Origin: an uncultured Pseudomonadota bacterium
GTDB lineage: Bacteria > Pseudomonadota > Alphaproteobacteria > Rs-D84
Length of the DNA stretch: 64,000 bases
Assembly (NCBI GenBank): GCA_937885575.1
Contig: CALABO010000014.1
Coordinates: 84,726 to 148,725, forward strand
Direction of reading: 5' to 3'
Position numbers and translations under genes: made by a program. Under the pieces are notes generated by a model, which made no database searches, was not told the DNA's origin, and worked only from the letters and a program-made list of their open reading frames with translations. How positions within the stretch are numbered: the stretch's first letter is position 1; each line of letters starts with the position of its first letter. This document shows, one piece after another, positions 1 through 62,860 of this stretch.

Positions 1-251
1 TACTGATTTTGTTGATCGGGTGTGCCCGTGCGTTTACGTTCAACGAATGTAATGCGGCCCTTGGCCAAATCGTATGGTGTCATTTCAACGCGAACACGTT
101 CGCCCACGTTGACCCAGATGCGCGCCTTGCGCATTTTGCCACAAACAGTTGCCAAAATTTCATGGTCGTTATCAAGCCGCACGCGAAACATTGTGTTCGG
201 TAATTTTTCGGTAACGGTTCCTTCGAAAACGACGACATCATCTTTTGCCAT
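1..251 (-). CDS. infA: translation initiation factor IF-1 (3-prime end reaches the window edge)
   Basis: Absent from the ORF track because it is open at the window edge. Reverse translation from the ATG at 251-249 gives [73 protein letters not shown]. This carries the canonical IF-1 S1-fold signatures LPNxMFRV, GKMRK and TPYDLxKGRI. Confidence 0.9.
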
Positions 252-377
252 ATTTATCCCTTTGATAAAACGGTATCAATTTTATGCCATGGCGTTTCAA
301 AAATCAAGAATTTTTTATTTGCGAATGGGCCGATGTTCTGATAAAATTATAGATAAGTATTGTAGGAAGGAAAAGTC

Positions 378-2585
378 ATGAACATCAAAATACTATCCGT
401 TATTTTGGCGGTTTTGCCGTGCGTTGGTTTTGCCGAAACGCGTGATAATGGTGCGGCCGGTGCGGGGCGGTTTGGAATTCGTGCGCCGTCGCTTTCCATT
501 GGGCCGGCGGTAAAATCAAAGAATATAAATGCGGTGGCCAAGCCCGCAACGAATACAACGAATACGGCGAATGTGGCAAATGAAACGCCGGCGGAAACCG
601 CGGCGGATGCGGACGAAGAGCCGGTCGCGAGTGAATCGGCGGAGGCGATAGTCAGTGCAAATGTTGGGCCCGATGAATGTCGCGCGGCGTATCGTGAATG
701 TATGGACGATTTCTGCTTGCTGGATGAATCCGAAGGTGGGCGTTGTTCGTGTTCCAACAACATAAAGCAATCGAAAAGTTTAATTCAAGAAATTCAGGAA
801 ATCGAACTTGCCGCGGAAAAACAATTTACCGAAGGTGTTGAGCGCGAACGCCTGGGGGCCAAGGCAAAGTTTGTGCGGTTTGGTGAAAGTGAGCAGGCGC
901 AAAAATCTTCGCGGCGCACCGGAATTGATTTGGTTGCGTGGATAAACGGTGGTTCTTCGGCGGCAAGTTTGGATGCGGACGATGATATTGGCGATAACCT
1001 TTACGATATGGCGGCGGATTCGTGCAGTTTTATTTTGGATATGTGTGAAAAACCGCGCGCGGAAATGGAAGAAAAACTTTATCAACGCGAAGTTGTAAAA
1101 GATTGTAAAACATTTAGTACTTATCTCGCGGAACAAAAGCGTGCGGCGGAATCAAACCGGCGGACGGCGGATGCCGCGGTGCGTGCAGCTGTTGTTGAAA
1201 TGTGGTCAACGACCAATAAGTATAATCGTGGTGAGTGTAGGCAAGCTTTGCGTGCGTGTGTGGCAGATAAAGGCGGATGTGGGGTAGGTTTTGAAAACTG
1301 TTTAGATGCTAAACTTTTGGAACGACGGACACTATCTTGCGAAAACGTTTTGGATCAATGCATGAATGTTCGGGATTATGTTTTAGAGGATTGGAAAGAC
1401 GAATCAAAGGAAATTCTTAAGCAAGCAGCAATTGATGCGGATAAAAACATGCGCCAAACTTGTTTCACAAAAATTCGCGCATGTTTGGAAGAAGGCTGTT
1501 CTGTGTCCATAGACTTTGGCAAAAGTGATGGACTTGCAACGAATTCGGGCTGTTTGAACAATGTGAATATTGCGGCGGGTGTATGTCCGATTATTGACGA
1601 ATGCAATCAAAAAATTCCGGGAATAAAGGCAAGTGTGAACGAACTTTTGGCATCACTGCGGACTGATTTTTGCCAAAATGATGTCGATAGGTGTTTGCGT
1701 GAAAAGTGTGGTGAAAATTTCACGGGCCCACAATGTGTTGGCAAAAGTTCGGCGGAAATTGTCGAACTGTGCCCAAAGAAAATGTTTTCGGCATGTAAGG
1801 ATGAAAAGTTCTATGACATTATTGTAAGTTCGGTTTTGTTGCAGATGAATTATCAAATGATGCAAGGGTGTATCAATTATTATGCCGATGCGTTAGGGAA
1901 AGTTTGTGGAACCGATATGAATTGTTTGCCATCCAGTTATATAGTTGCAGGATTAAAGAAAACCCCAAGTGATATTGGTGAAATAAAGAAAGAGGTTGCG
2001 GCGGAAAGTAAGGCGGCAGTTGATGAGTTCTTTAAAAGGTTTGAAACAGAAGCGACAGTTGCGGCGTGCAAGAGTGCGCAACAACCCGCAAATTCCGGAC
2101 GCAAGAGTTTAAGAGATTCTATATTTGCGGATACAAAGCAAGCAGCAGAATTTGCTGCCCAGATTAGGTATCAAAAGGATCTTGATTCAAAACTTGATGA
2201 ATTATCGCGTAAGGAAGATGTGACCAAAGCGGAACAAAATTGTTATGCCCGTTATCAGGTTGAAAAGAAAACATCAACGGATGAAAAAGGCACGTATTCG
2301 TATATAAAAAGTGTTTCGTTTGAACCATCATTGCGTAATTGTCATGTGTGTCGTATGCAACGTGTTTGTGAAACAGGTGGAGAAAGCAAGTCGTCGTCGG
2401 CATTAAAGGCGGGTGCGGGTGGCTTGACGGCGGGTGCATCCATGGGCACAATGGTAAATGCCGGATGGGGAACGCTTATTGGTGCGGTCGTTGGTGGGGC
2501 GGCCGGTGCGGTTGGCGGTGCATTATCTGGTGGTGAACAGACATTCTGTCAGGAAATCGAATCTTGCGAAGATATAAATATGTAG
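378..2585 (+). CDS. large cysteine-rich secreted protein, paralog family subtype A, copy 1 (735 aa)
   Basis: Sec-type signal peptide MNIKILSVILAVLPCVGFA. N-terminal signature ECRAAYRECMDDFCLLDESEGGRCSCSNN. Internal motif SCENVLDQCMNVRDYV. Glycine-rich hydrophobic C-terminal segment. RBS-like AGGAAGGAAAAG lies upstream. No family recognised. Confidence 0.85.
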   Translation: MNIKILSVILAVLPCVGFAETRDNGAAGAGRFGIRAPSLSIGPAVKSKNINAVAKPATNTTNTANVANETPAETAADADEEPVASESAEAIVSANVGPDECRAAYRECMDDFCLLDESEGGRCSCSNNIKQSKSLIQEIQEIELAAEKQFTEGVERERLGAKAKFVRFGESEQAQKSSRRTGIDLVAWINGGSSAASLDADDDIGDNLYDMAADSCSFILDMCEKPRAEMEEKLYQREVVKDCKTFSTYLAEQKRAAESNRRTADAAVRAAVVEMWSTTNKYNRGECRQALRACVADKGGCGVGFENCLDAKLLERRTLSCENVLDQCMNVRDYVLEDWKDESKEILKQAAIDADKNMRQTCFTKIRACLEEGCSVSIDFGKSDGLATNSGCLNNVNIAAGVCPIIDECNQKIPGIKASVNELLASLRTDFCQNDVDRCLREKCGENFTGPQCVGKSSAEIVELCPKKMFSACKDEKFYDIIVSSVLLQMNYQMMQGCINYYADALGKVCGTDMNCLPSSYIVAGLKKTPSDIGEIKKEVAAESKAAVDEFFKRFETEATVAACKSAQQPANSGRKSLRDSIFADTKQAAEFAAQIRYQKDLDSKLDELSRKEDVTKAEQNCYARYQVEKKTSTDEKGTYSYIKSVSFEPSLRNCHVCRMQRVCETGGESKSSSALKAGAGGLTAGASMGTMVNAGWGTLIGAVVGGAAGAVGGALSGGEQTFCQEIESCEDINM

Positions 2586-2592
2586 GGAACAT

Positions 2593-5283
2593 ATGAAAAA
2601 ATTTACCGTTCTATCATTGTTGTTTATTGTGCCGATTGTTGCGGTGGCAGCGACGGCGAAAAAACAATCGGCAATTCAAAACGGAACAAATGTTCGCGCG
2701 CGTGTTGCGGCGACCGGTGTTTATTCGCAAGAATGCTATGACGAATACTATGGTTGCATGGATCAATTTTGCATATCCGAAAACATAAATGGTGGCAGTT
2801 GTTTATGCAGTAACAATAATGAAAAATACGAATCCGAATTAGAAGAAATAAATGAAATTTTGGCAGAGGCCGACCGAATAAAAACCGTAGAGGTTGAAAG
2901 AATAAAACTGGGGGCCGATGCGGATATTGTCTTTACCGGCGAACGTAAATATGATGCGAACGGAAATGTGATACAATATTCGTCTGTGCAGAAAAAAGAT
3001 ACCACGCCGAAGATAAATAAAAAGCAGGAAGCATTAAAACTGTTTGAAGTCAATTTGTTCGAAGATGACGAAGACGATGATGATGTGATGCATAAAACCG
3101 GTGCCGCGCTGTTTGCCGCCGCCGATGAAACGTGTCGCGCGCAGTTGGGGAATTCGTGTGCCAAAGATATAAAATTGCTTAAACAAATTTATCAGCGTCA
3201 AATTGAATCCGATTGTCGTGGGTTTGCGAACGCAATCGCGCAACAGCGCACGGCGGCGGTCGCCGCGATGAATTCGGCGGAATCCGATGTGCGCAATGCA
3301 CTCAAAGAAAGTTTTGATTCCGCCAATAAATTTAACCAGGGCGAATGCATGGTTGAACTTAAAAAATGTATGTTGGGGGCGGATGCGTGCGGTGATGATT
3401 GGGCGAATTGTGTTTCGATAATTGCAAATGAAAATATGCAAAAGCCGGTTGCGAACCTTACGCCGGTTAAAACCACGATTAAATATAATATTACGCCGTC
3501 TGTTTTGGAACGACTTGAATCGAAACGCACGATTTGTGAACGCGTGTTGGATCAATGTATGGCGGTGCGCGATAATGTTTGGACGGCGTTTCTGCGTGAG
3601 GTTGCACCAAACCTTAAACTTGCGGAATTGCGGGCGGAATCGAATTTTCGGCAATCGTGTTTGACCGAAATTACGAACTGTATTCACACCGCGTGCAAAG
3701 ATGACATCGCGGGCAAGGGGACGGCGACAATGGATTCGTGTTTGTCGCGGCCCGATATGGCGCGGTCTTTTTGCAAAGTGCAACTTGACCCGTGCGAACG
3801 GATGGAACCACTGATTTGGGGATATGTTGTTGATAAACTTGCCGCGATGCGTGTTGACGCGTGTACAGCGGAGGTTAAAGATTGCATTTATTCGCCCGAC
3901 CGGTGTGGGCCGGACTTTATGAACTGTATCGGTATGGATTGGGAATTTGTGCATGGGCTGTGCCCGTTGGATAAATTGGTCGTGTGCAAGAAAAATAATC
4001 CGAACTTTAAAATGGAAGATATTGATTCAATGATAATGGGGCTTTACCTGAATATGGATAACAAGTCATTGGATAACTGTCAAAAATTGGTCGAAGATAA
4101 AATGATGGAAATTTGTGGTTCGACAACCGATTGCAACAAATTTGCAACGGATGATACAATTGGTACCGGGTCGTTGCAATATCAGAAAGATAGTGCAGGT
4201 ATTCATCGGTTGTCTGGGATGATTTCTTTTGGTCAAATCAAGGTTGGTTCGGGTAAAGATGATGCAGGGTTGATTGATATTTCCGATTATGCGTGGTATT
4301 TGTTAGAAAATGGTTATGTGTATGAAACAAATTTACCGTATGCGGATGCGGTTATGTATGAATTGGAAAATATCCAAGGAACCATAAATCGCGTTGTGAC
4401 GATGATTGAACAAGACCAAAAAATTCAATACTGTGTGACTGGACGTGATTTAACACAGATTACTGGGGCGGACAATGCACGAACGACAAAGGCACGTTTT
4501 CCGAATTTGCTGAACCAGGTGAAAATGCAAATTGCGATTGCGGCGTTGCACCAGGCCCAGGATAATTATAATAAAAAATATAATGAATATTTATCCAAAG
4601 CCATGCGTGAGGCATCGGTGGATATGGCAAATTTGATGTGTAATAAATTGCCGGCGGCGGATGGAACAGCCCAAGGAATTTCAGCGACAGATTTAAATGT
4701 TGATTTGATAAAACCGGGGACATTAGTTGTGGAATTTGGTGGTGTTTCGAATGCCGCAATTGCCGCGGGTGGAACGCATTCAACAATGAAGGTTGGTGGC
4801 ACGGCAAGTGTGGAACACAAAAGTGGTAATGCCGCCGGTGGTAATGATGGTGGTGTGGCTGGTACGGTTGGGGCAACACTTGGTACACTTGGGGCAGAGG
4901 CAGGCGCGGCACTTTTGAAATATGCGGCACAAAAGGGGGCAGAGGCGATTGCGGGAAAGAGTGCAGAAGTGGCACAATCTTTGATACAAAGTGCGGCATC
5001 GTTTAATCCGGTGGCTTTGGCGACAACAACGATTGCAGATATGACGGTCAAGGCGATTGGTATATTGGCTTCGGATCATTACAAGGCCGAATTTGATGGT
5101 GGAATACGTGAAATGTGGTCTGTGTTTAATCGTGACACGCGTGTCTGCCATTTATGCACTTCGACAATTACCAAGGATTGCAAGTCAACGTATAAACATG
5201 GTGTCTTTGGCATTGGACGTAGGAATGAAATGGATTGTACGGTGTCTGAACCGATTGAAAAGTGCGATGATATTCAAATGTAG
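2593..5283 (+). CDS. large cysteine-rich secreted protein, paralog family subtype A, copy 2 (896 aa)
   Basis: Signal peptide MKKFTVLSLLFIVPIVAVAA. Signature ECYDEYYGCMDQFCISENINGGSCLCSNN and ICERVLDQCMAVRDNV, colinear with copy 1. Only a 7-nt gap separates it from copy 1. Confidence 0.85.
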   Translation: MKKFTVLSLLFIVPIVAVAATAKKQSAIQNGTNVRARVAATGVYSQECYDEYYGCMDQFCISENINGGSCLCSNNNEKYESELEEINEILAEADRIKTVEVERIKLGADADIVFTGERKYDANGNVIQYSSVQKKDTTPKINKKQEALKLFEVNLFEDDEDDDDVMHKTGAALFAAADETCRAQLGNSCAKDIKLLKQIYQRQIESDCRGFANAIAQQRTAAVAAMNSAESDVRNALKESFDSANKFNQGECMVELKKCMLGADACGDDWANCVSIIANENMQKPVANLTPVKTTIKYNITPSVLERLESKRTICERVLDQCMAVRDNVWTAFLREVAPNLKLAELRAESNFRQSCLTEITNCIHTACKDDIAGKGTATMDSCLSRPDMARSFCKVQLDPCERMEPLIWGYVVDKLAAMRVDACTAEVKDCIYSPDRCGPDFMNCIGMDWEFVHGLCPLDKLVVCKKNNPNFKMEDIDSMIMGLYLNMDNKSLDNCQKLVEDKMMEICGSTTDCNKFATDDTIGTGSLQYQKDSAGIHRLSGMISFGQIKVGSGKDDAGLIDISDYAWYLLENGYVYETNLPYADAVMYELENIQGTINRVVTMIEQDQKIQYCVTGRDLTQITGADNARTTKARFPNLLNQVKMQIAIAALHQAQDNYNKKYNEYLSKAMREASVDMANLMCNKLPAADGTAQGISATDLNVDLIKPGTLVVEFGGVSNAAIAAGGTHSTMKVGGTASVEHKSGNAAGGNDGGVAGTVGATLGTLGAEAGAALLKYAAQKGAEAIAGKSAEVAQSLIQSAASFNPVALATTTIADMTVKAIGILASDHYKAEFDGGIREMWSVFNRDTRVCHLCTSTITKDCKSTYKHGVFGIGRRNEMDCTVSEPIEKCDDIQM

Positions 5284-6222: not shown

Positions 6223-6248
6223 AAACCGGTTGCGATTGCAACCGGTTT
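6223..6248 (+). terminator. hairpin terminator after mscS
   Basis: Perfect 11-bp stem AAACCGGTTGC / GCAACCGGTTT with loop GATT, followed by TTTGAATTTCTT. Confidence 0.6.
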
Positions 6249-14469: not shown

Positions 14470-14560
14470 GTTTAGTGGTTAGTGTAAGTGGTTAGTGTTA
14501 GTGAACCGGCGCGTTGCGCCGGTTTCATTATTTGTTTTATTTGTTTACACTACCCACTAC
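14467..14560. repeat. TAGTG-unit inverted-repeat element between convergent genes
   Basis: Left arm TAAGTTTAGTGGTTAGTGTAAGTGGTTAGTGTTAGTG (14467-14503), a central hairpin, then right arm CACTACCCACTAC (14548-14560). The arms contain the stop codons of both flanking genes. Confidence 0.8.
14504..14524. terminator. hairpin terminator shared by convergent genes
   Basis: Stem AACCGGCGC / GCGCCGGTT with loop GTT, followed by a T-rich tract to about 14546. Confidence 0.6.
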
Positions 14561-15246
14561 TTCGGGAAATGGATTGAACGCTGGGTTGCGGCGGATGTTT
14601 GCATCGCACCGAAACGCGCATTGATTACAAACGGTGTGATAAAGTTATTTATGTCTGGATTATACTGTGCGCCATTAAGGACGATGATTACAGGATTTTC
14701 CCCATCGCAATCGATACTGTATTTTGATGGATCGTATCTTTTTCCATAGCAATTACCGCTTAATGTCGCGACATAGTTCATATCGGCCAGTTCGCGGCAT
14801 GTTGGCGCGGGCCCGATTTCCCCGTTGGCAACCGTTTCTGTTGGGTTGGATAAAATTCCGTTGCACCAAACGCGCACATATTCGCCGTTCATCATAACCA
14901 GTGCGCCGTTTTGAGATGTCTTGCGCGCGCCATAGCAATCTTCGGCGGCGACATAAACGCCGGTATCAAAATCAGAATTTATTCCGTTGCCACTGATAAT
15001 TTTGTCACGGTTCATCGCAATTGGCTCAGATGCATTACCACTAAGTGCCGCCGCACATATAAACTTTCGGCCACGGCAATTGCCAGTTTCGTCCCATTCG
15101 TCATCCACGCCACGTGTATTTTTTGCATAGCACATCGCGTCACTGATGGTGCAAATTGTCGGTCGTAACCACCAATCAAGTGTTGCACCGAACGCGGTTC
15201 CGCACGCGGTACATCCAACGAATAAAATTGCAAATTGTTTTTTCAT
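14557..15246 (-). CDS. small cysteine-rich secreted protein or possible lipoprotein (229 aa)
   Basis: Internal start MKKQFAILFVGCTACGTAFG (signal peptide, possible lipobox FVGC) behind GGAAAGGAAA. Cys residues recur throughout. It lies 50 nt downstream of the 745-aa Cys-rich gene on the same strand. Confidence 0.7.
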   Translation of the reverse strand: MKKQFAILFVGCTACGTAFGATLDWWLRPTICTISDAMCYAKNTRGVDDEWDETGNCRGRKFICAAALSGNASEPIAMNRDKIISGNGINSDFDTGVYVAAEDCYGARKTSQNGALVMMNGEYVRVWCNGILSNPTETVANGEIGPAPTCRELADMNYVATLSGNCYGKRYDPSKYSIDCDGENPVIIVLNGAQYNPDINNFITPFVINARFGAMQTSAATQRSIHFPK

Positions 15247-15296
15247 TTTTCCTTTCCCCCGTATTATATCAGTTTTTTGTGTGTCGTGCAAGTTAT

Positions 15297-17534
15297 CTAT
15301 GGGGTGCGACAAATGCCCCATTTTTCATTTGCGTTTGTTTCGTTATAGAAATCGATGTACTTTGGCGCGGATGTATCGTTTGTCCATGTGCCGCCCATAT
15401 CGGTGCATTCGCGTGCAAGTATCGTTGCCATGTCGGCACGCACCGAATCCATAAGCGTATTTACATCGGCCAAGACCGATATCGGCAAAACCGCGTTTGG
15501 TTGTGCTGCGTCAGATGGACGCATGCAATACTGCATCGCATAGTTCACCATTTTCTGATACAAACTGCCCGCGTAGTCGCCACAATCAATGCCAACCTTG
15601 TGCGGGCCGTTGTCGTCGCATTCCCATCCATCCTCGGTCGGGCACGCAAAGCATTTGTGTTTGCCATCGGTCCATGTCCCAAGGTAAAATCCATGTTTGC
15701 ATGATTGATATTCGCGATTTTCCCAACACATGTATTCCGATTGTGGGTTGCCGACAATATTATTTATTAAACTATTGGCTGGTTGCACCAGGGTTCCGGT
15801 GTATGTTCCGGGTTGGACATAATTGCAGTCGGGATTGTTCGCATAGGCAATATCGCCGGGGGTATAGACGCGGCAACCGTATGGATATTCGTGTGTGGTA
15901 TCACTTGTTGGGACGCGACACAATTTTTTTGCATAGTCGCGCAGAGTGCCAAGGCAATTTTGTGCGATTTTCTGATTCACAATGTTGCGCATTTCCGTGA
16001 CCAATCGATCAAGGCCGTTCGGGCCACCACCGTAAAGGTTGCTGCACGTTTCCATTTTTTCCGAACATTGCTCTTCGGACAGTTCAAGGCGCGTGCCAAG
16101 CAACATTTGCTCTTCGATATTACTGTAATCGCGCAGGCGTTCCGTTTTCGTGTCATAGCATGTGTTCACGACATCCATACATTCGTTTTTAACCTGTTGA
16201 ATTCGTAACTGTTGCCCTTGGTATATTTCGGTTATCGCCTGGCGCAGGTATTCGTCCCAAACCGTGTCCGCAATGTCGCGACATGTTTCAAGTGTGTGTT
16301 CGGCGAATTTCCTTTTTGCGTTTAATTCGGTGACGAGTTTTGCGTTTATGCTGTTGGTTAAAATGTTGCCCGACAGTGAAATCTGGTCATTCAATTTATA
16401 GAAATTTTTTGAATATATCGGGTTGCCGGTTGCGCGTTCAATGTAAAGGCCGGTCAGATCCAAACAGTGAATATAGTTCGCCCCGCATGCCGTGTCCGCG
16501 GTTATGTTCGCACGCACGCCGGCGATACATTCATTTATTGCGGTTGAATTGTGCGCGTCATAGTTTTCAAGTCGCGCCGCGTTCATTTCCCGATTCGTTT
16601 CACGGATTGCGGCGTTTGCACTTATCGATTGTTTTTCAAGCGCGGTTAGTAATATCGAACAATCGTTTTCAATATACATTCCATATGCCGATGCAACCAT
16701 ATTTAGCGTTGTCATTGATGTGCAAGTTGGCATAACAAGTTCGGCGCACTGGGCATGCACGGCGTTATATAACGGTTCGCCCGTAAGGTTTGCGATGTTC
16801 GCGCCAGATACAATATCGGTCGTGTTCCATATTTGCCCAATGTCGCCGGCAATATCCAAAGTTCCCGCGGTCGATAGTGAATTTGTCTTTGCCTTTTTTA
16901 ATACATCGCCGATGGCGGTCAGTTTTTTTGACGATGCGGAATTGTCGCGTGTGCCGGCAAGTTTTTTTTCGCCTTCACTTGCGGTCAGCATGGCCTTGAC
17001 CTCCGCCGGGGTTTTAAGGATTGCGTCAATGTTCAAATCTTTGAAATCTTGCAATTGTGTTGATGTTTGGCTAAGTGCGTTTTCGCGCGTTTTAACTGTG
17101 TCCAGTTTTGATGAGCATATACAGCGACGATAGTGGTCGTCAATTGTTGCGCAAAACTGATCCATGCACGAAAAATACGCCGCATAGCAATTGTGATATT
17201 TTTCATCAAATGTATTTGTTGAAATTGTTTGCGCGGTTGTCGCGCGTACGGTTGCCGCGCGGTTCGGTGTCGTGCGCGTGGTTGTGCGGCCCATCGCCGC
17301 CGTTATCGCACCACGCGGGTTTGCGGCGACGCGGCCCGCACGTGCCACACGCGCAACCCCGGTTCGTGCGTTTGCCGTGCGGGTATTTGTTGTGGTGCGT
17401 GCGGCAACATTTTGACCGTCGCGGTTCGTTTCGGTTGGTGTTGCGCGCGTTGGTGAATTTTGGGTGCGAACCGCCGCCAACGCCGACATGGCGCATAACG
17501 CGCATATTGCAAAAGAAAGTATTTTTCCTTTCAT
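15297..17534 (-). CDS. large cysteine-rich secreted protein, paralog family subtype B, copy 1 (745 aa)
   Basis: Signal peptide MKGKILSFAICALCAMSALA, then a Thr/Arg/Ala/Asn-rich spacer. Family signature NCYAAYFSCMDQFCATIDDHYRRCICSS and ETCRDIADTVWDEYLRQA. Confidence 0.85.
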   Translation of the reverse strand: MKGKILSFAICALCAMSALAAVRTQNSPTRATPTETNRDGQNVAARTTTNTRTANARTGVARVARAGRVAANPRGAITAAMGRTTTRTTPNRAATVRATTAQTISTNTFDEKYHNCYAAYFSCMDQFCATIDDHYRRCICSSKLDTVKTRENALSQTSTQLQDFKDLNIDAILKTPAEVKAMLTASEGEKKLAGTRDNSASSKKLTAIGDVLKKAKTNSLSTAGTLDIAGDIGQIWNTTDIVSGANIANLTGEPLYNAVHAQCAELVMPTCTSMTTLNMVASAYGMYIENDCSILLTALEKQSISANAAIRETNREMNAARLENYDAHNSTAINECIAGVRANITADTACGANYIHCLDLTGLYIERATGNPIYSKNFYKLNDQISLSGNILTNSINAKLVTELNAKRKFAEHTLETCRDIADTVWDEYLRQAITEIYQGQQLRIQQVKNECMDVVNTCYDTKTERLRDYSNIEEQMLLGTRLELSEEQCSEKMETCSNLYGGGPNGLDRLVTEMRNIVNQKIAQNCLGTLRDYAKKLCRVPTSDTTHEYPYGCRVYTPGDIAYANNPDCNYVQPGTYTGTLVQPANSLINNIVGNPQSEYMCWENREYQSCKHGFYLGTWTDGKHKCFACPTEDGWECDDNGPHKVGIDCGDYAGSLYQKMVNYAMQYCMRPSDAAQPNAVLPISVLADVNTLMDSVRADMATILARECTDMGGTWTNDTSAPKYIDFYNETNANEKWGICRTP

Positions 17535-18327: not shown

Positions 18328-19380
18328 ATGCCGTTTGCTCCACAGCGCCAGAATCCCGTGACAGAAGCAATATATGCCAAGATAAAAGAAGAGGGCTATA
18401 CATCCAGACCTGCACCCATTTTTTTAGAAGCTCCATCAATTCGTAATGCGTTTGCCGAAAATGAGGAACTATATAAAAGATATAGATTTTATCAACTGTA
18501 TGTAGAATATTTACAGCAGAGTGCAAAAGACATTAGACCACAAAAAATGCAATCGTCTGATTTATTCGTTTTGGATGGGGCGGATCGAATCCGTTACCTT
18601 GCCAATGTTGAAGAAATGCTGTCAAAATTGTTAAATGGTAAGTGTGAAGATGATTTTAGCAGTAAAAAAGCATTTGTTGAACTTGATACATTTTTGGTTA
18701 TGGTTTTTCTGTCATTCTTTTTTGGGGTTTCCAAATATTTGACGGTTTTGCAATCTAGAAAGGAATTTACAGAAAAACAGAAGGTTGCCATAAGCACACT
18801 TTGTAAGGATGCAAATTATATGAAGGCATGGTCTGGTTGTGTTTTGAAAGCGTTATCAGAGGCGAATAAAGATAATTATGAACAAGTATACCATAATAAG
18901 ATTGAGTGTCCCATAGCCCAGATGTTTAGCAGTCGAGATACTACGTTGCATAAATATGCATATGATGAAAACGGTGCGTTGCGTACAGTGTTAAATCGTA
19001 ACGGGTTGACCGGGAAAAATTTTGATGATTTCTGGTCTTGGACTGGTTGGGACAAGAGGAATTTTATTTATAATTGGGCATGGCAGTTAGACCGTGTTAG
19101 TACCCTTGATAATGATACCTTGTCACGTATTGAGGATAATTATTACGATGCTGATATAATCATACCACTTGTTAAAGATATGTATGCTTTAGGGGGGGAT
19201 TATGTGTGTTGGCCGTTGGTAAATACGTATTATAAATTAACTGGTAAGATAACACAAAATCGTTTGAATCGTGAAGGGAACACATTAAAAGAACATGAAG
19301 CCAGTATAGAAAAGACTTGTCAAAATGCCTTGGTTTGGGCGCGAAAAGTAGCCAAACAAATGCCGGAAGAATCAAAATAA
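18328..19380 (+). CDS. hypothetical protein (350 aa), AT-rich orphan
   Basis: Long ORF behind AAAGAGG. Trp-rich segment FDDFWSWTGWDKRNFIYNWAWQLD. Uses AGA/AGG Arg codons, unlike its neighbours. No signal peptide and no recognised domain. Confidence 0.6.
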   Translation: MPFAPQRQNPVTEAIYAKIKEEGYTSRPAPIFLEAPSIRNAFAENEELYKRYRFYQLYVEYLQQSAKDIRPQKMQSSDLFVLDGADRIRYLANVEEMLSKLLNGKCEDDFSSKKAFVELDTFLVMVFLSFFFGVSKYLTVLQSRKEFTEKQKVAISTLCKDANYMKAWSGCVLKALSEANKDNYEQVYHNKIECPIAQMFSSRDTTLHKYAYDENGALRTVLNRNGLTGKNFDDFWSWTGWDKRNFIYNWAWQLDRVSTLDNDTLSRIEDNYYDADIIIPLVKDMYALGGDYVCWPLVNTYYKLTGKITQNRLNREGNTLKEHEASIEKTCQNALVWARKVAKQMPEESK

Positions 19381-30171: not shown

Positions 30172-30693
30172 ATGCAAGGAAATAAACCTGTTTTTTTAGT
30201 GGTCGGTCTTGGGAATCCCGGCCCAGAATATGTTGGCACTCGGCACAACGTTGGATTTATGGCGGTGCAATATTTTGCGGGGGCGGATGCGACTTGGAAA
30301 AATGAACTGTTTGCCAAGACAAACAAAGTCGATATTGACGGCGTGCGCATAATCTTTGCAATGCCACAAACATTTATGAACGACAGCGGGCGTGCCGTGC
30401 GGGCGATTGTTGATTACTATAAAATCCCAATTGAAAATGTGACGGTGATTCATGACGATATGGATTTGAAATTGGGCGACACGCGAACCAAGGTTGGCGG
30501 ATCCAGTGCGGGGCATAATGGCATAAAGTCAATCGATTCGGCGATTGGTCGCGAATATAGGCGCATAAGAATTGGAATTGGGCATCCACGTGATTTGGGC
30601 TTGCCGATTGATGCGGCGGATTGGGTTTTGGGTAAATTCACGCCCGCGCAACTATCCGAAATTCAAAGTGTGATTGAAAAAATTGAATTATAA
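30172..30693 (+). CDS. pth: peptidyl-tRNA hydrolase
   Basis: LVVGLGNPGPEYVGTRHNVGF, MNDSGRAV and GHNGIKSI. Confidence 0.95.
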   Translation: MQGNKPVFLVVGLGNPGPEYVGTRHNVGFMAVQYFAGADATWKNELFAKTNKVDIDGVRIIFAMPQTFMNDSGRAVRAIVDYYKIPIENVTVIHDDMDLKLGDTRTKVGGSSAGHNGIKSIDSAIGREYRRIRIGIGHPRDLGLPIDAADWVLGKFTPAQLSEIQSVIEKIEL

Positions 30694-31683
30694 ATCGGTC
30701 CAACTTTCCGGGTCGCTAAGATTTACACAACCCGCACTATCGCATAGTTGTGTTTCGGAACCATAGTGGCAATAATCTGAACCTATGGTTCCGGTGCTCG
30801 TTGTCGTTTTACCGGCACCGCAAGCACTTGGTGGGCATATGTCTTGAGTATAGTTGTTGACAGGCGGTTCCAGAGATTGCGTGCAGGCGTGTTCAAGATA
30901 TTTCCCTTTTGGAATCAAGGTGCATTTGCAAACAGCATGATTTTCACAATCGTCATCATCAGTATTGTCTTCCATATCTGTCAAGTGATTTACATAATAT
31001 CCGGTGTTACATTGTGTACAATAATATAAACCATAAGTCCCTGTGTAAGAGATTTCTTGTACATAATCAAGCCAACGAGGACCGCCGTATTTTACATTTT
31101 TTATAATTCCACTGCAAAATTTATCTGTTGAATCCGCAAAGGACAATTCGTCACATCTACAATTGTCAATGTCCCATTCTTCTTCACTTGAGAACCAGCT
31201 GGCGCTTCCAGAAATTTTGTCATTTGGACAATTACTAGAACCGAAAATCTTACAATCAAGATATTCTGCATAACATTGTGCATTGTTGGTGTCTATGTGA
31301 TAGTTTGTGCTATTATATTCACCGTCATTATTCCAACATTTTATAGCACTATTTGGGTAAAAGGAACCGCAATTATGATTTAATGTTCCATCTGGTTCTA
31401 TGCACTCGCCGCTATTTATAGATTTGTAGCATTCGTTGATAGATTTTGCGCCTTCTGCAGATTTTGGGAATTCGCCGTTTGTTTTGATATTACAGCAAAA
31501 AGCGAAATGACCACCAGGGCAATAATATCCTTCTGGACATTCCAGGCATTCTTCTTGTTCCATGTCAGGATACGTTCTTGGAGGACAATTATAAACATTG
31601 CTCCCAAGATTTTGGGTGCACACTGAACTGTAAACACTATTTGTAAGAAGTGTACATAGTAAAAACATTAATAACATTCTCAT
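30688..31683 (-). CDS. cysteine-rich secreted protein with eukaryote-like CxxCPxGYYC repeats (about 331 aa), AT-rich
   Basis: Signal peptide MRMLLMFLLCTLLTNSVYS. Motifs ECLECPEGYYCPGG and YYCTQCNTGYYV resemble GCC2/GCC3 or furin-like Cys-rich repeats. Start at the internal ATG 31683. Confidence 0.7.
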   Translation of the reverse strand: MRMLLMFLLCTLLTNSVYSSVCTQNLGSNVYNCPPRTYPDMEQEECLECPEGYYCPGGHFAFCCNIKTNGEFPKSAEGAKSINECYKSINSGECIEPDGTLNHNCGSFYPNSAIKCWNNDGEYNSTNYHIDTNNAQCYAEYLDCKIFGSSNCPNDKISGSASWFSSEEEWDIDNCRCDELSFADSTDKFCSGIIKNVKYGGPRWLDYVQEISYTGTYGLYYCTQCNTGYYVNHLTDMEDNTDDDDCENHAVCKCTLIPKGKYLEHACTQSLEPPVNNYTQDICPPSACGAGKTTTSTGTIGSDYCHYGSETQLCDSAGCVNLSDPESWTDL

Positions 31684-31734: not shown

Positions 31735-32196
31735 CTAAAAAAAACGCCCGATATGCCAGCCATTTTTTGCAAACCACAAGCTGTCCGATTGCCACATACC
31801 ATGTTTTTTCGTTAGGGTATCTGAATGTATGTGTGCACCGTCACGACCGACTTTGATAATACCTTTGCCACGAACTTTGTCTGGATTTATATCTATGCGC
31901 GTTTGTAAACTATCGCGTGCTTTTTTAAAGTGTCTCGGTTCCCATGTACTACCCATCGTGTTTACTTGCATAATATGAATATAAACATATTTGATAGTTG
32001 GATCATTCGTATAAAATGCGATGGTGTCTTTTGGGGGAACTAGCCCGTCACCTGCGCCCCACATCCATGGAACCACCGCTTCACGCCATGGTTCCGGTTC
32101 GGGTTCCGGGGTTGGGTCTTTTTTGCATGCGGTGGCGATTGCCATCAATGCCGCAAGTGTTAAAATGTGGTTCATTTTTACTTTCTTCATATTCAA
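31735..32196 (-). CDS. probable lipoprotein of unknown function (153 aa), AT-rich
   Basis: LTLAALMAIATAC lipobox-like signal, followed by KKDPTPEPEPEP. No recognised domain. Confidence 0.6.
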   Translation of the reverse strand: MNMKKVKMNHILTLAALMAIATACKKDPTPEPEPEPWREAVVPWMWGAGDGLVPPKDTIAFYTNDPTIKYVYIHIMQVNTMGSTWEPRHFKKARDSLQTRIDINPDKVRGKGIIKVGRDGAHIHSDTLTKKHGMWQSDSLWFAKNGWHIGRFF

Positions 32197-32275: not shown

Positions 32276-35086
32276 TTATTGACCGTAGTGTATAAACCAA
32301 TTTTGGTGGGTGGAATCAGAAATTGGGCTTTCGTGTTGGTTGTCATCGTAATATACCATTGAAACATTGTATTGTGAATTTCCCAGTATTGGGTTTGTAT
32401 AGGTATTTGTATTTGGTTCAATCATAACAAGTCGACCGTTACAGGTAATTTTTGTGCCGTTTGGATATTCCGTTGTTGGATTCGCGCCGGTAATCGATGC
32501 AGACGTGCTGTGCACACATACAATATATTTCGTGCCGTCTGTGGTTTTAAGTGCACCGACAACATTTGCGTTTCGTGGTATGCAAACATTTTTATTGTCT
32601 ATTGTTTCAATTTTGCCTTCACAACATGGATCATCGACGCCACCCATTGGCGTTGTGTTAAAAGCATTTTGACCACTAAAGCAACAATTTTTTAAATCAT
32701 CATTGATTTGTATTTGAACATGTGGGGCCGGACAATACATACCTTCGCCCGTGATATTGCCGGCGGCGGCGTCATCAGGCAGGCATATTTGTTGCCCCAT
32801 GTAATTTGTATATGTTGTATCGGCGGTGCAACGGGTGTTCACGCAACTGCGTGCGTCACCTTGGTACCCGCCACCGGCCATTTGCCTTGCGGTGCCGGTG
32901 TTTATCGCAAACCAAGATAGCAAGGTGCTTTGGCCATTTTGTGGCATATATATGCGATTGTGTTGTTCGTCGCCGGTGCCGATAACCACAGATGGATATT
33001 CTTCGCAATTGCCCCAGATGCGTTCCGCAATTCGGCATGTGGCGCATTCGGTATCATAATCAGATGAAGATAAACATTTTTCGGACGTGGTGCAGATATC
33101 TTCGATTGGGGAAATGTTCGCGTTGCCGTATAATTCACGATAAAACGCGTATTTGCGATTGCCGGTTGCGGTTTTGCCGAACCTTTCCATTATCGCCATA
33201 ATTGCATCATCGCCCGCCGACGCAACACAGTTCAATACTTCGCCCCAGCATGCCGTGCGTTCAAGTATTGCGTGGCGGTTCGGTGAAAAATCTATGTCAT
33301 CGCACAGGTCAAAGTTGCCGGAAATCGACTTGCATGATTGGATGATACAATTTTGGCCAACCTGGGTGCAACTTGATATAATCGCGTCATATGTTTTATC
33401 GGTGGCGATTTCATAAACGCCCGTTTCCCATGTTTCACCGCCCGTCGCGTTCAGCAAGGTTGCACAGGAATTTTTGACCTCTGCACACATAACATTTGCG
33501 GTTTTGTCCGCCATGATGCCGAACACGGAAAGTGCCCGCGCATCAAAATTCTCAATCGAATCCGTCGCAGAATCCAAACATTCGGCGGTTAGTTTTGTGC
33601 ATGCCTGGCGTATTTCTTCGAGTTTAGCGGTTTGCGCAAGTTTGATTTGTGCCAATGCATCTTCGACAAAGGCGTTCCAAACGGTGTCGGCGATATTTTC
33701 GCAATGTTCGGTTGCGGTGTTAAGGTATTTTTTGCGGTCGTTTAAAAATGTGATGAATTTTCCGGAACTGTTTGCCGATGTCCATGTTTGGTTTACCCCC
33801 GGACGCGTAATCATGTTATCCAAATCCGCCAAGTTCACACTAAGGAACGCGGCCCCCGTTGTCGGGTCGATATAGCGGCCGGTCATATCAAGGCACTTTT
33901 CCATTTTGGCACCGCAAACCGTTGTGTCGGTAAGCATTTCCAACATCTTGCGCTTGCAGGTCAACAGGTCATCGGAATTTCGTGTTTGGTATGCATCAAG
34001 TCGCGACATGTCAAGCAGTGCGCCACTTTCAAATACCTTGGCACGGGCCTGATCTACCTGGGATTGGTATGCCTTTTTTACCGTGTTGCAATCCTGTTCG
34101 ATTTGCATTTGGTATCCGCTTTGTGCAAGTGATATTTCTTCATCTGTGCAAACCTCACGCGCGATGTCGTGACAGATGGGCAGGGCGGAATTGTAAAGCG
34201 CAACGCCGGACTTGGTCGTTGTGTCGATGCCCATAAACGAATCGACCGTGTCGAACGCCGCATCAACATTTAATGTCAATGATATCGCGCCCAGACCCCC
34301 GCCGATGTTTGAATCCGTATCGCCGAACTTTGCATTTAACTTTTTGGCGATGTCGTCCAGCGCGCGTTTTGATGTTGTTGTGTCGCGCGTGGAATAAAAT
34401 GCGTCTTCGCCTTCGGTTGCGGTGTTTATGGCGTTCACATCTTCGGCGTCCATGTTCACAAGCAACAGGCGCTGATTAAAATCGAGCATTTTATTTTCAA
34501 CGTCCGTCATTTGTTTTTTTACTTCGTTGAATTCGTTCGAACGTGATGAGCACGCACATCGGCGCAGGTTTGCATCCTTGTTAGCGCAGAATTCGTCCAT
34601 GCATTCATAAAATATTTCGCGGCATTTTGTATAGTTTGTGACGATTGCGCCCGCGGTGTTTGTAGTGGCGCGTGCGGTTGTGGCCGTTCGCGCGTTTGTG
34701 CGCGGTGTGCGTGCGGTGCGTGACGCGGTTGCACCGCGCGCGGTTGTTGCGCGGCGCGCGGTTGTCGTGGTTGGTCGGTTTTGAACGGTTGGACGTGTTG
34801 TCGGCGTTGAACGCGCAGACACCGTTCGTGGTGCAGTGGTTGGGGTTTGAACTGCACCACGCGATTCGGTTGTGGGTGTGCGTTGTGTGGTTGTGGTATT
34901 ACGTGCGGTTGCATTTTGTGTCGGGCTTGCCGCCGGTGGTGTGGCACGTGTTGTGGATGTCAAGGGGCCGGATGAAGTCGCGCGACGTGTGGCGGCACGT
35001 GCGGTGTCGTCACCGTCAATGGCCACCGCATGCCCAAAGGCAAGCATGCCAAGGCATACATAAAAAAGTAATCTAAATCCTTTCAT
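32276..35086 (-). CDS. large cysteine-rich secreted protein, paralog family subtype B, copy 2 (about 936 aa)
   Basis: Start at the internal ATG 35086 (signal peptide MKGFRLLFYVCLGMLAFGHAVA); the track start at 35197 overlaps tRNA-Leu. A Thr/Arg/Ala-rich spacer of about 124 aa follows. Signature KCREIFYECMDEFCANKDANLRRCACSS and EHCENIADTVWNAFVEDA. Confidence 0.85.
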   Translation of the reverse strand: MKGFRLLFYVCLGMLAFGHAVAIDGDDTARAATRRATSSGPLTSTTRATPPAASPTQNATARNTTTTQRTPTTESRGAVQTPTTAPRTVSARSTPTTRPTVQNRPTTTTARRATTARGATASRTARTPRTNARTATTARATTNTAGAIVTNYTKCREIFYECMDEFCANKDANLRRCACSSRSNEFNEVKKQMTDVENKMLDFNQRLLLVNMDAEDVNAINTATEGEDAFYSTRDTTTSKRALDDIAKKLNAKFGDTDSNIGGGLGAISLTLNVDAAFDTVDSFMGIDTTTKSGVALYNSALPICHDIAREVCTDEEISLAQSGYQMQIEQDCNTVKKAYQSQVDQARAKVFESGALLDMSRLDAYQTRNSDDLLTCKRKMLEMLTDTTVCGAKMEKCLDMTGRYIDPTTGAAFLSVNLADLDNMITRPGVNQTWTSANSSGKFITFLNDRKKYLNTATEHCENIADTVWNAFVEDALAQIKLAQTAKLEEIRQACTKLTAECLDSATDSIENFDARALSVFGIMADKTANVMCAEVKNSCATLLNATGGETWETGVYEIATDKTYDAIISSCTQVGQNCIIQSCKSISGNFDLCDDIDFSPNRHAILERTACWGEVLNCVASAGDDAIMAIMERFGKTATGNRKYAFYRELYGNANISPIEDICTTSEKCLSSSDYDTECATCRIAERIWGNCEEYPSVVIGTGDEQHNRIYMPQNGQSTLLSWFAINTGTARQMAGGGYQGDARSCVNTRCTADTTYTNYMGQQICLPDDAAAGNITGEGMYCPAPHVQIQINDDLKNCCFSGQNAFNTTPMGGVDDPCCEGKIETIDNKNVCIPRNANVVGALKTTDGTKYIVCVHSTSASITGANPTTEYPNGTKITCNGRLVMIEPNTNTYTNPILGNSQYNVSMVYYDDNQHESPISDSTHQNWFIHYGQ

Positions 35087-35155: not shown

Positions 35156-35240
35156 TGGTGCGGATAGGGGGACTTGAACCCCCACGGATTTCTCCACAGC
35201 ATCCTTAGTGCTGAGCGTCTACCAATTCCGCCATATCCGC
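35156..35240 (-). tRNA. tRNA-Leu (class II, long variable arm); hand-folded anticodon AAG
   Basis: Reverse complement: GCGGATA TG GCGG AATTGGTAGA CGC T CAGCA CTAAGGA TGCTG TGGAGAAATCCGT GGGGG TTCAAGT CCCCC TATCCGC A CCA. Colinear with E. coli tRNA-Leu. Anticodon loop C-T-AAG-G-A. Confidence 0.85.
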
Positions 35241-36882: not shown

Positions 36883-36906
36883 GGCATTTATAAAGGTATG
36901 ACAAGT

Positions 36907-37515
36907 ATGAAAAAATTTTTATTGATTGCGGTTTTATACTTTACACCGGTGGTTGCGATGGCGGCGGGGCTTTCTGGCACGGCGCATGTGAATATGACAA
37001 GTGACACTGCCGCAACGGCGAAAAAAATGGCGTTTGATGATGCGCGGCGGCAAATTATTGTTGATGTATTGTCGCCTTATTCCGATGCGGCGGCGTTACG
37101 CACGGCGGTCGCAAACGAAAAAAACGCAGTGCTGACTACGCTTATTGAAAGTTCGGGAATTTCGGGCGAAAAACTTTCGGACACGACGTATTCGGCGAAT
37201 ATAAAGATGACCGTGAATCGGGTTGCTGCAAAAAATTGGCTTGCCGGACAAGACGTTCGTAATTGGCTTTCAACCGAAGAAGAAACGGGCGGAAAATTCA
37301 CAATTGTCGCGACATTAAATGATAAATTCGCGGACTGGGGGCAAATTCAGCGCGTGGCAAATGGTGCGGGTGTCGATTTGGAAACTGAATCTATAAACGG
37401 GAAGCAAATCGTCTTTCGGGCAAATGCCGGTCGGCGCGGGGCGCTAACGGCGGCGCTGCGTGAAAATGGTTGGCGGTACCAAGATAGGGATGGACTTTTA
37501 CATATCTTTAAGTAA
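36907..37515 (+). CDS. secreted or periplasmic protein of unknown function (about 202 aa)
   Basis: Signal peptide MKKFLLIAVLYFTPVVAMAA. No recognised motif. It sits between two beta-barrel genes. Confidence 0.6.
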   Translation: MKKFLLIAVLYFTPVVAMAAGLSGTAHVNMTSDTAATAKKMAFDDARRQIIVDVLSPYSDAAALRTAVANEKNAVLTTLIESSGISGEKLSDTTYSANIKMTVNRVAAKNWLAGQDVRNWLSTEEETGGKFTIVATLNDKFADWGQIQRVANGAGVDLETESINGKQIVFRANAGRRGALTAALRENGWRYQDRDGLLHIFK

Positions 37516-37550
37516 TAATTTCGTCGGGAATAAAATCAAAGGATTTACTG

Positions 37551-38414: not shown

Positions 38415-38495
38415 TGGAAAGTGTAAGCGAAACCGGCGCATTATTGCGCCGGTTTTTTGTTAAATAATACCACTTTCCACTATTTCACCACGCTA
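38411..38495. repeat. TAGTG-unit inverted-repeat element between convergent genes
   Basis: Left arm TTAGTGGAAAGTGTAAG, a central terminator hairpin, then right arm CCACTTTCCACTATTTCACCACGCTA. The arms contain the stop codons of both flanking genes. Confidence 0.75.
38430..38458. terminator. bidirectional hairpin terminator
   Basis: 11-bp stem AAACCGGCGCA / TGCGCCGGTTT with loop TTAT, followed by a T-run. Confidence 0.7.
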
Positions 38496-55059: not shown

Positions 55060-55167
55060 ATTTTGCCTTTTTTTGATTATTGTGCTATAAATATAGTATA
55101 AAAAAATCATTTGTCAAATAATTTTATTGTTTTTGGTGAAATTTTATTTTGGGTGTATAATTGTCTT

Positions 55168-62804: not shown

Positions 62805-62860
62805 AAAACATGTTTGCAAAATGTACCAAAAAAGTGTAAAATTGTCACAAAGGAAGGAAT

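Follow-up and report, generated by a model that had tools for sequence, protein, structure and literature searches.

What four very large, cysteine (Cys)-rich proteins that match no characterised family do for a bacterium is the question raised by a 64,000-nt stretch of contig CALABO010000014.1 (GenBank assembly GCA_937885575.1, positions 84,726 to 148,725), hereafter called the window, which derives from an uncultured alphaproteobacterium of Rs-D84/Candidatus Enterousia. The proteins are encoded by the genes designated here A, B, C, and D (Table 1), and an earlier note on this DNA had advanced the working hypothesis that they form a disulfide-cross-linked envelope or surface layer, or an adhesin family, analogous to the Cys-rich outer-membrane complex of chlamydiae. 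The analysis described below leads us to propose, with a probability of roughly 0.5, that A, B, C, and D together with a fifth and smaller protein, E, may be the subunits of a lineage-specific, disulfide-stabilised extracytoplasmic envelope scaffold in Ca. Enterousia/Rs-D84.

A, B, C, and D constitute one family of the Rs-D84 lineage

The two neighbouring open reading frames (ORFs) for A and B, of 735 and 896 amino acids (aa) with a 7-nt gap, were present just where the earlier note had placed them, and the four genes sum to 9,948 nt, in agreement with the ~9.9 kb it had given. The Cys motifs that it quoted were found as written in the four paralogs, and BLASTP comparisons gave 30% identity over 484 aa between A and B (E = 4e-51), 27.6% identity over 399 aa between C and D (E = 5e-48), and E-values from 7e-9 to 2e-19 for the A/B versus C/D cross-pairs. 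Together with 16 Cys columns that are invariant in the four-way alignment, these values bore out the claim that the same scaffold recurs in C and D, and A, B, C, and D are one real family in two subfamilies, A/B and C/D. Their total Cys contents are 37, 36, 31, and 39, respectively (4.0-5.0% of residues), and one of the 37 Cys of A lies inside its signal peptide, leaving the 36 that had been counted by hand. With regard to D, the ATG at 35086 was preferred as the start codon, since the longer, GTG-initiated version of the ORF collides with tRNA-Leu (35156-35240). A hidden Markov model (HMM) of A-D picked up exactly these four among all ORFs of the window, which ruled out a fifth member hidden there, and their base composition was the same as that of the surroundings.

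A profile search against 1.84 billion representatives identified 920 clusters at 50% identity with E ≤ 1e-3, including 520 with E ≤ 1e-30, so that the designation of A and B as "founders" of the family was unfounded. The named distant members were all metagenome-assembled genomes (MAGs) of Alphaproteobacteria or Rickettsiales, and the close homologs were unnamed proteins of "MAG: Alphaproteobacteria bacterium" records. When the GTDB species representatives were scanned, 309 coding stretches were obtained. The best 80 were orthologs of A from as many assemblies, which carry the names Candidatus Enterousia, uncultured Alphaproteobacteria, or "Rickettsiales" and originate from rumen, faeces, and other gut samples. 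The family is ancient and widespread across the Enterousia/Rs-D84 lineage. Enterousia is part of the order Rs-D84, with genomes of ~0.75-1.0 Mb and ~820-1,200 genes; it lacks a respiratory chain, the tricarboxylic acid (TCA) cycle, flagella, biosynthetic pathways for amino acids, nucleotides, and lipids, and standard uptake transporters, and it keeps rod-shape and peptidoglycan genes (MreB, RodA, and MrdA) (PMC12306168). Its lifestyle has been proposed to be obligately partner-dependent, and numerous hypothetical envelope proteins are encoded that might mediate interactions (PMC12306168). Taking the genome size from the same source (~900 genes), A-D occupy about 1% of the genome.

The identities to the syntenic MAG L001 were 66% for A, 60% for B, and 58% for C, as compared with 56% for RodZ, 66% for TspO, 70% for DusB, 83% for MscS, and 91% for UvrA. 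Given that A, B, and C are close to RodZ, TspO, and DusB in this respect, they evolve like ordinary envelope genes, unlike hypervariable antigens. These results also bear on the notion that the four ORFs are annotation artefacts, pseudogenes, or recent mobile or phage cargo, in favour of which one could cite the single, weak match obtained from PHROGs, a "tape measure" hit in the low-complexity N-terminal region of D (E = 5e-4). The full-length orthologs with conserved synteny in ~80 species, the breadth of the family with invariant residues all along the proteins, a base composition like that of the surroundings, the absence of mobile-element genes nearby, and the lack of a BFVD structural match all speak against it; the conservation data already refute this notion, the probability of which we regard as negligible. 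A phage tape-measure identity of D was dismissed likewise, as the PHROG match is confined to the low-complexity tail.

Conservation and parity of the Cys residues indicate structural disulfides

The alignment of homologs, which the earlier note had named as a test of its view, revealed Cys positions that are invariant or nearly so in 64-80 orthologs per protein. All 36 mature Cys of A were 99-100% conserved in 80 species-level orthologs (53-82% identity), whereas all 36 Cys of B (64 orthologs, 56-96% identity) and all 38 mature Cys of D (65 orthologs, 48-87% identity) were invariant or at least 90% conserved. Over 168 diverse family members, 20 core Cys columns were at least 95% conserved. Six Cys specific to A/B make up a matched set, and neither A294 nor A321, to name two of them, has a counterpart in C and D.

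The number of mature Cys was even in 96% of the A, 90-97% of the B, and 89% of the D orthologs, as well as in 77% of the diverse representatives (p = 9e-10), and it changed in steps of two, in line with the earlier suggestion that the even count in A is compatible with complete disulfide pairing. D-type proteins, for instance, possessed 38, 40, 42, or 44 Cys in 41, 11, 12, and 6 sequences, and 39, 41, or 43 in 4, 2, and 3. The close C-type orthologs had 29, 31, 33, or 35 mature Cys, and the C-like relatives with 28 Cys, as opposed to the 29-Cys orthologs, were found to belong to a separate subfamily with a different C-terminal module. Both the even-number bias and the paired gain and loss of Cys that are looked for in disulfide-bonded exported proteins were thus observed. 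The steps of two and the invariance indicate intramolecular disulfide staples, and the mature Cys behave as structural disulfides. Furthermore, many of the Cys are placed at i/i+7 within predicted helices, this being the dominant spacing. Because the pattern is nested and the inner pair is lost jointly, we infer twin C-x6-C staples across antiparallel helical hairpins; in B, the predicted pairs would be C252-C322 and C259-C315, the latter being the inner pair that is lost together in C and D.

The same Cys could in principle serve as metal ligands, either in Zn or Fe-S sites or for the buffering of metal or sulfide, or as redox-active thiols of a thiol-disulfide relay operating via CH[VL]C. 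A and B each carry a single conserved CXXC within the C-terminal domain (CHVC in A and CHLC in B), five Cys are clustered within 25 N-terminal residues, and the habitat is anaerobic with no Dsb gene in the window. However, the even parity and the steps of two indicate pairs, not three- or four-ligand sites, and the dominant spacing is that of i/i+7 on helices, not CXXC or CXXCH, the latter motif being found nowhere in A-E. The n-regions of A-E contain no RR, that is, the proteins would be exported via Sec without the twin-arginine signal expected for a cofactor-loaded exported protein, and neither His/Cys metal-site signatures nor Pfam matches were detected. A metal or redox role is thus considered very improbable.

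Export signals and domain architecture

The N-termini of A-D consist of a basic n-region, a hydrophobic core, and an AxA site followed by A-[TV]-R, and these features are kept in orthologs from ~80 species. Judged by a heuristic (hydrophobic core plus AxA site) in combination with this conservation, the Sec signal peptides that the earlier note had assigned to A and B hold good, and by the heuristic a cleavable type-I signal peptide, the Sec-type signal expected of disulfide-bonded exported proteins, was present in each of A-E. Cys15 within the signal peptide of A is retained in just 20% of the orthologs and hence is not a lipobox Cys; lipoprotein anchoring was rejected for A and for E alike, because the candidate Cys are poorly conserved. 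Downstream of the signal peptide, the family-defining N-terminal five-Cys motif is invariant in A-D and 95-98% conserved over the 168 diverse members.

Beyond the signal peptide, the sole hydrophobic peak of A is found at residues 676-719, and the Gly/Ala-rich stretch of B (residues 751-810) is variable in an otherwise conserved protein; both are moderately hydrophobic. The C-terminal 85 aa of A scored 13.9, 12.9, and 10.1 bits against glycine-zipper profiles (cutoffs 28.9, 25, and 24.2), which amounts to a compositional likeness only, and B gave no glycine-zipper profile match in Pfam. A and B share a C-x(5,8)-C-[ED]-D-I-x-M end, with M896 of B being invariant, and A possesses a module homologous to the C-terminal five-Cys domain of B, split by the Gly-rich stretch. 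Within B, hhalign of sub-alignments identified two copies of a 25-residue repeat with the consensus C-x6-C-x6-C-G-x-D-[WF]-x-N-C (probability 83%, E = 8.8e-6). As a side observation, the C-termini D-I-N-M (A, 2547-2582) and D-I-Q-M (B, 5245-5280), of an invariant hydrophobic-x-hydrophobic type, resemble a class-II PDZ ligand, and a PDZ-containing S41 protease, CtpA, is encoded at 52319-53728(+); recognition or processing of the A and B ends by such a protein is speculative.

While A is conserved from end to end, the conservation of C and D is 0.6-0.85 in the core and falls to 0.18-0.46 in the modules C 571-660 and D 750-936, in which only the Cys are fixed. In particular, the C-terminal domain of D showed a non-Cys identity of 0.18-0.35 versus 0.6-0.85 in the core with its Cys invariant, and distant C-like representatives are devoid of the Cys of the C module (aa 571-660). 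C and D are otherwise acidic, and their Arg-rich N-terminal tails are nearly without Lys; Arg recur along the low-complexity consensus of the D tail, several of them being invariant or at least 90% conserved.

Such variable modules and tails would also suit adhesins that an obligately partner-dependent bacterium releases or displays on its surface, or proteins by which it interacts with the partner. If this were the primary role of A-D, the helical stapled core would be a protease-resistant stalk, and the C/D modules, along with the Arg-rich tails, would attach to the surface of a host or partner, for instance to its polyanionic glycans, much as heparan sulfate is bound by the basic N-terminus of OmcB. 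The fixation of Cys alone in the C-terminal modules of C and D, the net charges of their tails (+11 in C and +15 in D), the proposed partner dependence of a lineage whose many hypothetical envelope proteins possibly mediate interactions (PMC12306168), and the encoding nearby of F, a further Cys-rich exported protein with furin/VSP-like (variant-specific surface protein-like) motifs, are in favour of such a role, as is a precedent for a Cys-rich envelope protein, OmcB, acting as a glycosaminoglycan-binding adhesin (PMC2229832). In contrast, no autotransporter, type I, type II, or type IX secretion signal, lipobox, or beta-barrel was detected in A-D, which leaves the route across the outer membrane unexplained. 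In addition, conservation extends over almost all of A and B, and the rate at which the family evolves does not exceed that of RodZ, TspO, and DusB, unlike what is typical of exposed adhesins or antigens, and the four ancient paralogs have stayed single orthologs with no lineage-specific expansions. A primarily adhesive or partner-binding role therefore appears rather unlikely to us.

Searches for a known family or fold

No characterised family or recognisable fold had been assigned to these proteins, and our searches left that assessment standing. An hmmscan of Pfam and NCBIfam at E ≤ 1 yielded nothing meaningful for A-D, and the profile search (hmmsearch) of PDB sequences with the ortholog alignments of B and D gave 0 matches at E ≤ 1. 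The models of B and D built with AlphaFold 2 (AF2) from 65-66-sequence alignments were of moderate quality, with a predicted local distance difference test score (pLDDT) of 66.3 and a predicted template modelling score (pTM) of 0.42 for B, and 64.2 and 0.44 for D. Both models have a core of long helices (up to ~58 residues) with Cys located within the helices; B ends in a small beta domain (residues 829-895), and D is disordered at 15-149 and beta-rich at ~730-936. A-D share a conserved and acidic core, mostly alpha-helical according to these models. With Foldseek, for which E ≤ 1e-3 was taken as the threshold, the best E-values were 1.1 (B, PDB), 0.55 (D, PDB), and 0.46 (D, BFVD).

As to individual candidates, Chlam_OMP6 (the OmcB family) had no match for A-D in Pfam (E ≤ 1) or NCBIfam, and Sel1 (PF08238) at E ≤ 1 and YTV (PF07639) were likewise without a Pfam match in A-D. 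ChlamPMP_M aligned to the C-terminus of D with 14.5-16.7 bits (best E = 0.008) versus a cutoff of 25, and neither a Pmp middle domain above cutoff nor an autotransporter domain was present in A-D in Pfam. No known fused domain was found in 8 sampled proteins among the longest distant homologs or in the Pfam columns of 360 matches. The literature on Rs-D84 and Enterousia that was searched contained nothing on the proteins A-E or on cell biology. The family is new and its fold probably so, whereas Cys-rich disulfide-stabilised envelope proteins are already known as a general kind.

The predicted core also invites comparison with soluble carriers, since all-alpha, disulfide-stapled carriers are common, as exemplified by albumin, saposins, and plant nonspecific lipid transfer proteins. 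A-D might accordingly be soluble proteins that bind, carry, or chaperone compounds in the periplasm, such as lipids or other hydrophobic metabolites that an auxotroph has to scavenge: the periplasm is the default destination of a protein with a Sec signal and no other sorting signal, the core combines an all-alpha structure with many disulfides, and neither standard uptake transporters nor pathways to lipids, amino acids, and nucleotides are present in the lineage (PMC12306168). On the other hand, Foldseek revealed no resemblance to a carrier fold, transporter genes were linked to the family neither in the window nor in L001, L083, L084, and L085 (the last two being distant loci), and a length of 735-936 aa is very great for a carrier, in which charged, disordered tails and variable heads would be superfluous. 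The odd Cys numbers of C and E described below also suggest covalent assembly, not a soluble monomer. We thus judge a carrier function improbable.

E is encoded next to C in a conserved cluster

The gene adjoining the 3' end of C encodes E, a protein with a type-I signal peptide having a conserved AxA-type cleavage site, the nine mature Cys of which are 100% conserved; exactly nine mature Cys were present in 54 of 56 E orthologs. A lipidated Cys like that of OmcA was not found, the N-terminal Cys being kept in only 7-12% of the orthologs, and E had no Pfam, PDB, or PHROG match. Of 81 related loci, 57 had an E-like gene 3' of the C-type gene and in the same orientation, and in 64 the C-type gene lay immediately upstream of A-B, divergently in 60 of those. 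With infA (~1-251(-) in the window) sitting between the C-type gene and A-B, the genes are ordinarily arranged as E<-C<-infA|A->B, A and B being divergent from the C-type gene.

As neighbours on one strand, C and E are presumably co-transcribed. The Cys count of C was odd in 47 of 55 loci with an adjacent E, and since both proteins carry an odd number of fixed Cys, one intermolecular disulfide between C and E is suggested; such a bond, or covalent homodimers, would be the simplest reading. The possibility that D is a C-like protein fused to an E-like one (29 + 9 = 38 Cys) was rejected, as the hhalign alignment of E with D had a probability of ~0.

On the other arm of the cluster, A, B, and mscS are separated by gaps of 7 and 14 nt with no terminator between them, and a Shine-Dalgarno sequence (AGGAAGGA) precedes the ATG of A. 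A promoter-like site was located upstream of A, although the number of such sites in the consensus scan does not exceed that in shuffled sequences. A universal A-B-mscS operon that would imply an osmotic function was rejected, because mscS is 3' of B in only 39 of 80 loci.

A predicted disulfide-stabilised envelope scaffold

The scaffold that we favour may be pictured as follows. After export, the helices of A-D would be locked into hairpins by "twin C-x6-C" ladders. A and B, made from one transcript, would form a conserved base, which may contact a membrane via the Gly/Ala-rich hydrophobic stretch and the small five-Cys beta domain with its I-x-M-COOH end. The presumably co-transcribed C and E would each have one unpaired Cys and be joined by an intermolecular disulfide, whereas C and D would add the polycationic Arg-rich tails and variable, Cys-framed C-terminal modules facing the exterior, the outer membrane, or a partner. 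The assembly could confer mechanical and protease resistance or act as an attachment surface, resembling OmcA/OmcB while being unrelated to them.

Several points weigh against this scaffold. The location, abundance, and cross-linking of A-E are all predicted, and the Cys pairings are deduced solely from the sequence pattern and joint loss, while parity inside an ortholog group is mostly inherited and reflects few independent events. C is odd also in 5 loci that have room for a downstream E but no E adjacent, and hence the C-E link is not discriminated. The glycine-zipper Pfam matches to the C-terminus of A are sub-threshold (E = 0.046-0.8). No Dsb, VKOR, thioredoxin, or secretion gene was found within the 64-kb window, and the Enterousia lineage is a strict fermenter without respiratory chains (PMC12306168), so that what would oxidise the predicted disulfides is a question. 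Finally, peptidoglycan genes are kept, namely those for PBP1C and M23 peptidases in the window besides the rod-shape and peptidoglycan genes mentioned above (PMC12306168); a wall-replacement role as in Chlamydia is therefore not required.

A bolder form of this proposal can be put forward only tentatively, as a possibility. The five proteins A-E might build a previously unrecognised, covalently disulfide-linked proteinaceous envelope or attachment apparatus based on a new "twin C-x6-C helical-hairpin ladder" fold; it would be a counterpart of the chlamydial complex that arose by convergence in an anaerobic, reduced-genome alphaproteobacterium, and might be the structure by which the auxotrophic cells hold on to a partner and exploit it.

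Comparison with known systems

The chlamydial outer membrane complex comprises the disulfide-stabilised Cys-rich proteins OmcB (large) and OmcA (small) (PMC6752827; PMC3561449). Similarly, a large and a small Cys-rich exported protein, C and E, are encoded here side by side (the large proteins having 4-5% Cys), disulfides would be the stabilising principle, as deduced here from the sequences, and a basic N-terminal region as in OmcB is found in the Arg-rich tails of C and D. The gene adjoining D belongs to the Pom family of Protochlamydia porins, the counterpart in this comparison of MOMP/Pom, and for PomS of Protochlamydia the function of an outer-membrane porin has been shown experimentally (PMC3561449). 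To find homologs of Pom in an alphaproteobacterium is unusual in itself. The hosts resemble chlamydiae, too, in the reduced genome and presumed partner dependence. Unlike OmcB/OmcA, to which no sequence or fold similarity was found, A-D have a predicted helical core. OmcA is a lipoprotein, whereas E is without a conserved lipobox. Peptidoglycan genes are retained here, unlike in Chlamydiaceae as traditionally described, and no developmental cycle is known here. The earlier analogy to the chlamydial complex is thus upheld circumstantially, by the presumed co-transcription of E with C, their odd Cys numbers, and the Pom-like neighbour of D, and fails as regards homology.

Helicobacter Hcp/Sel1-like proteins are secreted proteins of host-associated Proteobacteria with alpha-helical hairpins, each of which is stapled by a disulfide. 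Disulfide-stapled helical hairpins are likewise predicted here on the basis of the Cys pattern. In contrast to Hcp/Sel1, A-D had no PF08238 match, lack a regular 36-aa repeat, with one 25-aa four-Cys motif being duplicated instead, and are much larger with non-repeat terminal domains. In the mitochondrial twin-CX9C and twin-CX3C (CHCH) proteins, a helix carries two Cys on one face, which form pairs with two Cys of an antiparallel helix, and the intermembrane space in which they reside is topologically equivalent to the periplasm. The same principle with C-x6-C spacing may apply here, given the inner pair jointly lost in C and D. CHCH proteins, however, are small single hairpins for whose import and oxidation Mia40 is responsible, and no homology was detected.

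The GxxxG-rich hydrophobic stretch of A is reminiscent of glycine-zipper outer-membrane proteins (SlyB/Pcp and the Rickettsia 17-kDa antigen), its best weak Pfam matches being Gly-zipper_Omp, Gly-zipper_YMGG, and Rick_17kDa_Anti. Unlike these proteins, A scores far below the gathering cutoff (at best 13.9 bits against 28.9) and has no lipobox, and the corresponding part of B is variable and without a match. Planctomycete YTV-domain proteins are Cys-rich, disulfide-linked cell-wall components in a lineage with an unusual envelope; A-D differ from them in the lack of a PF07639 match and in composition and predicted fold.

Neighbourhood of D and other genes of the window

The window had been regarded as housekeeping apart from the four genes, which does not fit its content: envelope genes are plentiful, including those for two M23 peptidases, CtpA, FtsH, and PBP1C, and two more Cys-rich exported proteins (E and F) are encoded. 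Divergently from D, the Pom-like gene precedes those for an exported protein of 205 aa that contains no Cys and for a DUF3078 protein (35338-38414, +). The D/Pom-205aa-DUF3078 layout recurs in L083 beside a D ortholog of only 46% identity, and the other neighbours differ there. F, at 30688-31683(-), two genes downstream of D, is an unrelated protein of ~331 aa with a signal peptide and 29 Cys (8.6%), carries C-x2-C-P-x-G-Y-Y-C motifs of the furin/VSP-like type, had no Pfam, PDB, or PHROG match, and is missing from that position in L083. Between D and F, at 31735-32196(-), a 153-aa predicted lipoprotein is encoded with a lipobox-like IATAC, a Pro/Glu-rich linker, and no Pfam match.

In the distant loci L084 and L085, no recognisable secretion, Dsb, or transport system adjoined the family member. 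The L085 member (15072-17462(+)) is followed, in this distant relative, by unannotated 530-aa and 796-aa proteins, the latter with faint Ephrin_rec_like/TNFR Cys-rich and Flg_new matches; Cys-rich exported proteins seem to be clustered in the lineage.

Among the other genes, 38480-46544(-) encodes a bacterial alpha-2-macroglobulin of 1910 aa (MG2, bMG3, bMG5, bMG6, bMG10, bait region, and A2M), the domains of which were recognised by Pfam with no match in NCBIfam, paired with PBP1C; this pair represents a periplasmic anti-protease module retained in a genome of less than 1 Mb. ORFs of 230-350 aa without a Pfam or NCBIfam match are found at 18328-19380(+), 48969-49676(-), 54271-55893, and 61507-63209; the ORF at 62511-63209(-), with 11 Cys and no signal peptide, may not be a real gene. 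The GC skew is strongly positive over nearly the whole window (1-64000), with a cumulative rise that is monotonic save for a dip at ~56-58 kb, which, together with most long genes being on the + strand, suggests one replichore.

Table 1. Genes and sequence features of the Cys-rich protein family and its surroundings in the window
Feature	Position	Strand	Description and basis
Gene A	378-2585	+	ORF; 735-aa exported protein, 36 mature Cys, A/B subfamily
Gene B	2593-5283	+	ORF; 896-aa exported protein, 36 Cys, tandem to A with 7-nt gap
Gene C	15297-17534	-	ORF; 745-aa exported protein, 29 mature Cys (odd), C/D subfamily
Gene D	32276-35086	-	ORF; 936-aa exported protein, 38 mature Cys, C/D subfamily
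Gene E	14557-15246	-	229-aa exported Cys protein from internal Met, downstream partner of C
Promoter-like site upstream of A	319-347	+	TTGCGA-17-TAAAAT with TG; consensus scan only
A signal peptide, ~aa 1-20	378-437	+	MNIKILSVILAVLPCVGFA/E; hydrophobic core and AxA site kept in orthologs
A N-terminal five-Cys motif	678-761	+	C-x6-C-M-D-x-F-C-x9-C-x-C-S; family-defining
A Gly/Ala-rich hydrophobic stretch, aa 676-719	2403-2534	+	Glycine-zipper-like; hydropathy
A C-terminal end	2547-2582	+	FCQEIESCEDINM; conserved in orthologs
B internal repeat, copy 1, aa 251-275	3343-3417	+	C-x6-C-x6-C-G-x-D-W-x-N-C; hhalign
B internal repeat, copy 2, aa 423-447	3859-3933	+	hhalign
B C-terminal five-Cys beta domain, aa 829-896	5077-5280	+	With CHLC, ends CDDIQM; AF2 strands 829-895, pLDDT ~68-85; Cys invariant
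Terminator-like hairpin, first strong one after A-B-mscS	6223-6248	+	11-bp stem, 6 GC pairs
C variable Cys-containing module, aa 571-660	15555-15824	-	Non-Cys identity 0.19-0.46 vs core 0.62-0.78
C Arg-rich low-complexity N-terminal tail, aa 22-112	17199-17471	-	Net charge +11, 14 Arg; conservation 0.27-0.39
D beta-rich Cys-framed variable C-terminal domain, aa 730-936	32279-32899	-	AF2 strands, pLDDT ~75-90
D Arg/Thr-rich disordered tail, aa 24-150	34637-35017	-	Net charge +15, 19 Arg, 0 Lys; pLDDT <50 at residues 15-149
Pom-family outer-membrane porin-like gene	35338-36882	+	514 aa, divergent from D; Pfam Pom E = 1.7e-8, 34.6 bits vs cutoff 22.4

Implications

Ca. Enterousia/Rs-D84 is prevalent in the gut of ruminants, equines, birds, rodents, and humans, has never been cultured, and has a lifestyle that is an open question (PMC12306168). 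The five genes described herein make up ~1% of its DNA with every Cys fixed lineage-wide, and they are thus very likely central to the envelope or to partner interaction. They raise the question of how a non-respiring anaerobe oxidises ~150 cysteines per protein set, and offer practical handles: the cells and the sites at which they make contact could be located with antibodies or tags, a redox-sensitive envelope might lend itself to enrichment or lysis, and structural biology would gain a probable new fold. If the proposed scaffold is true, it would represent a second, independent envelope design of the "large plus small Cys-rich protein plus porin" type beside that of Chlamydiae.

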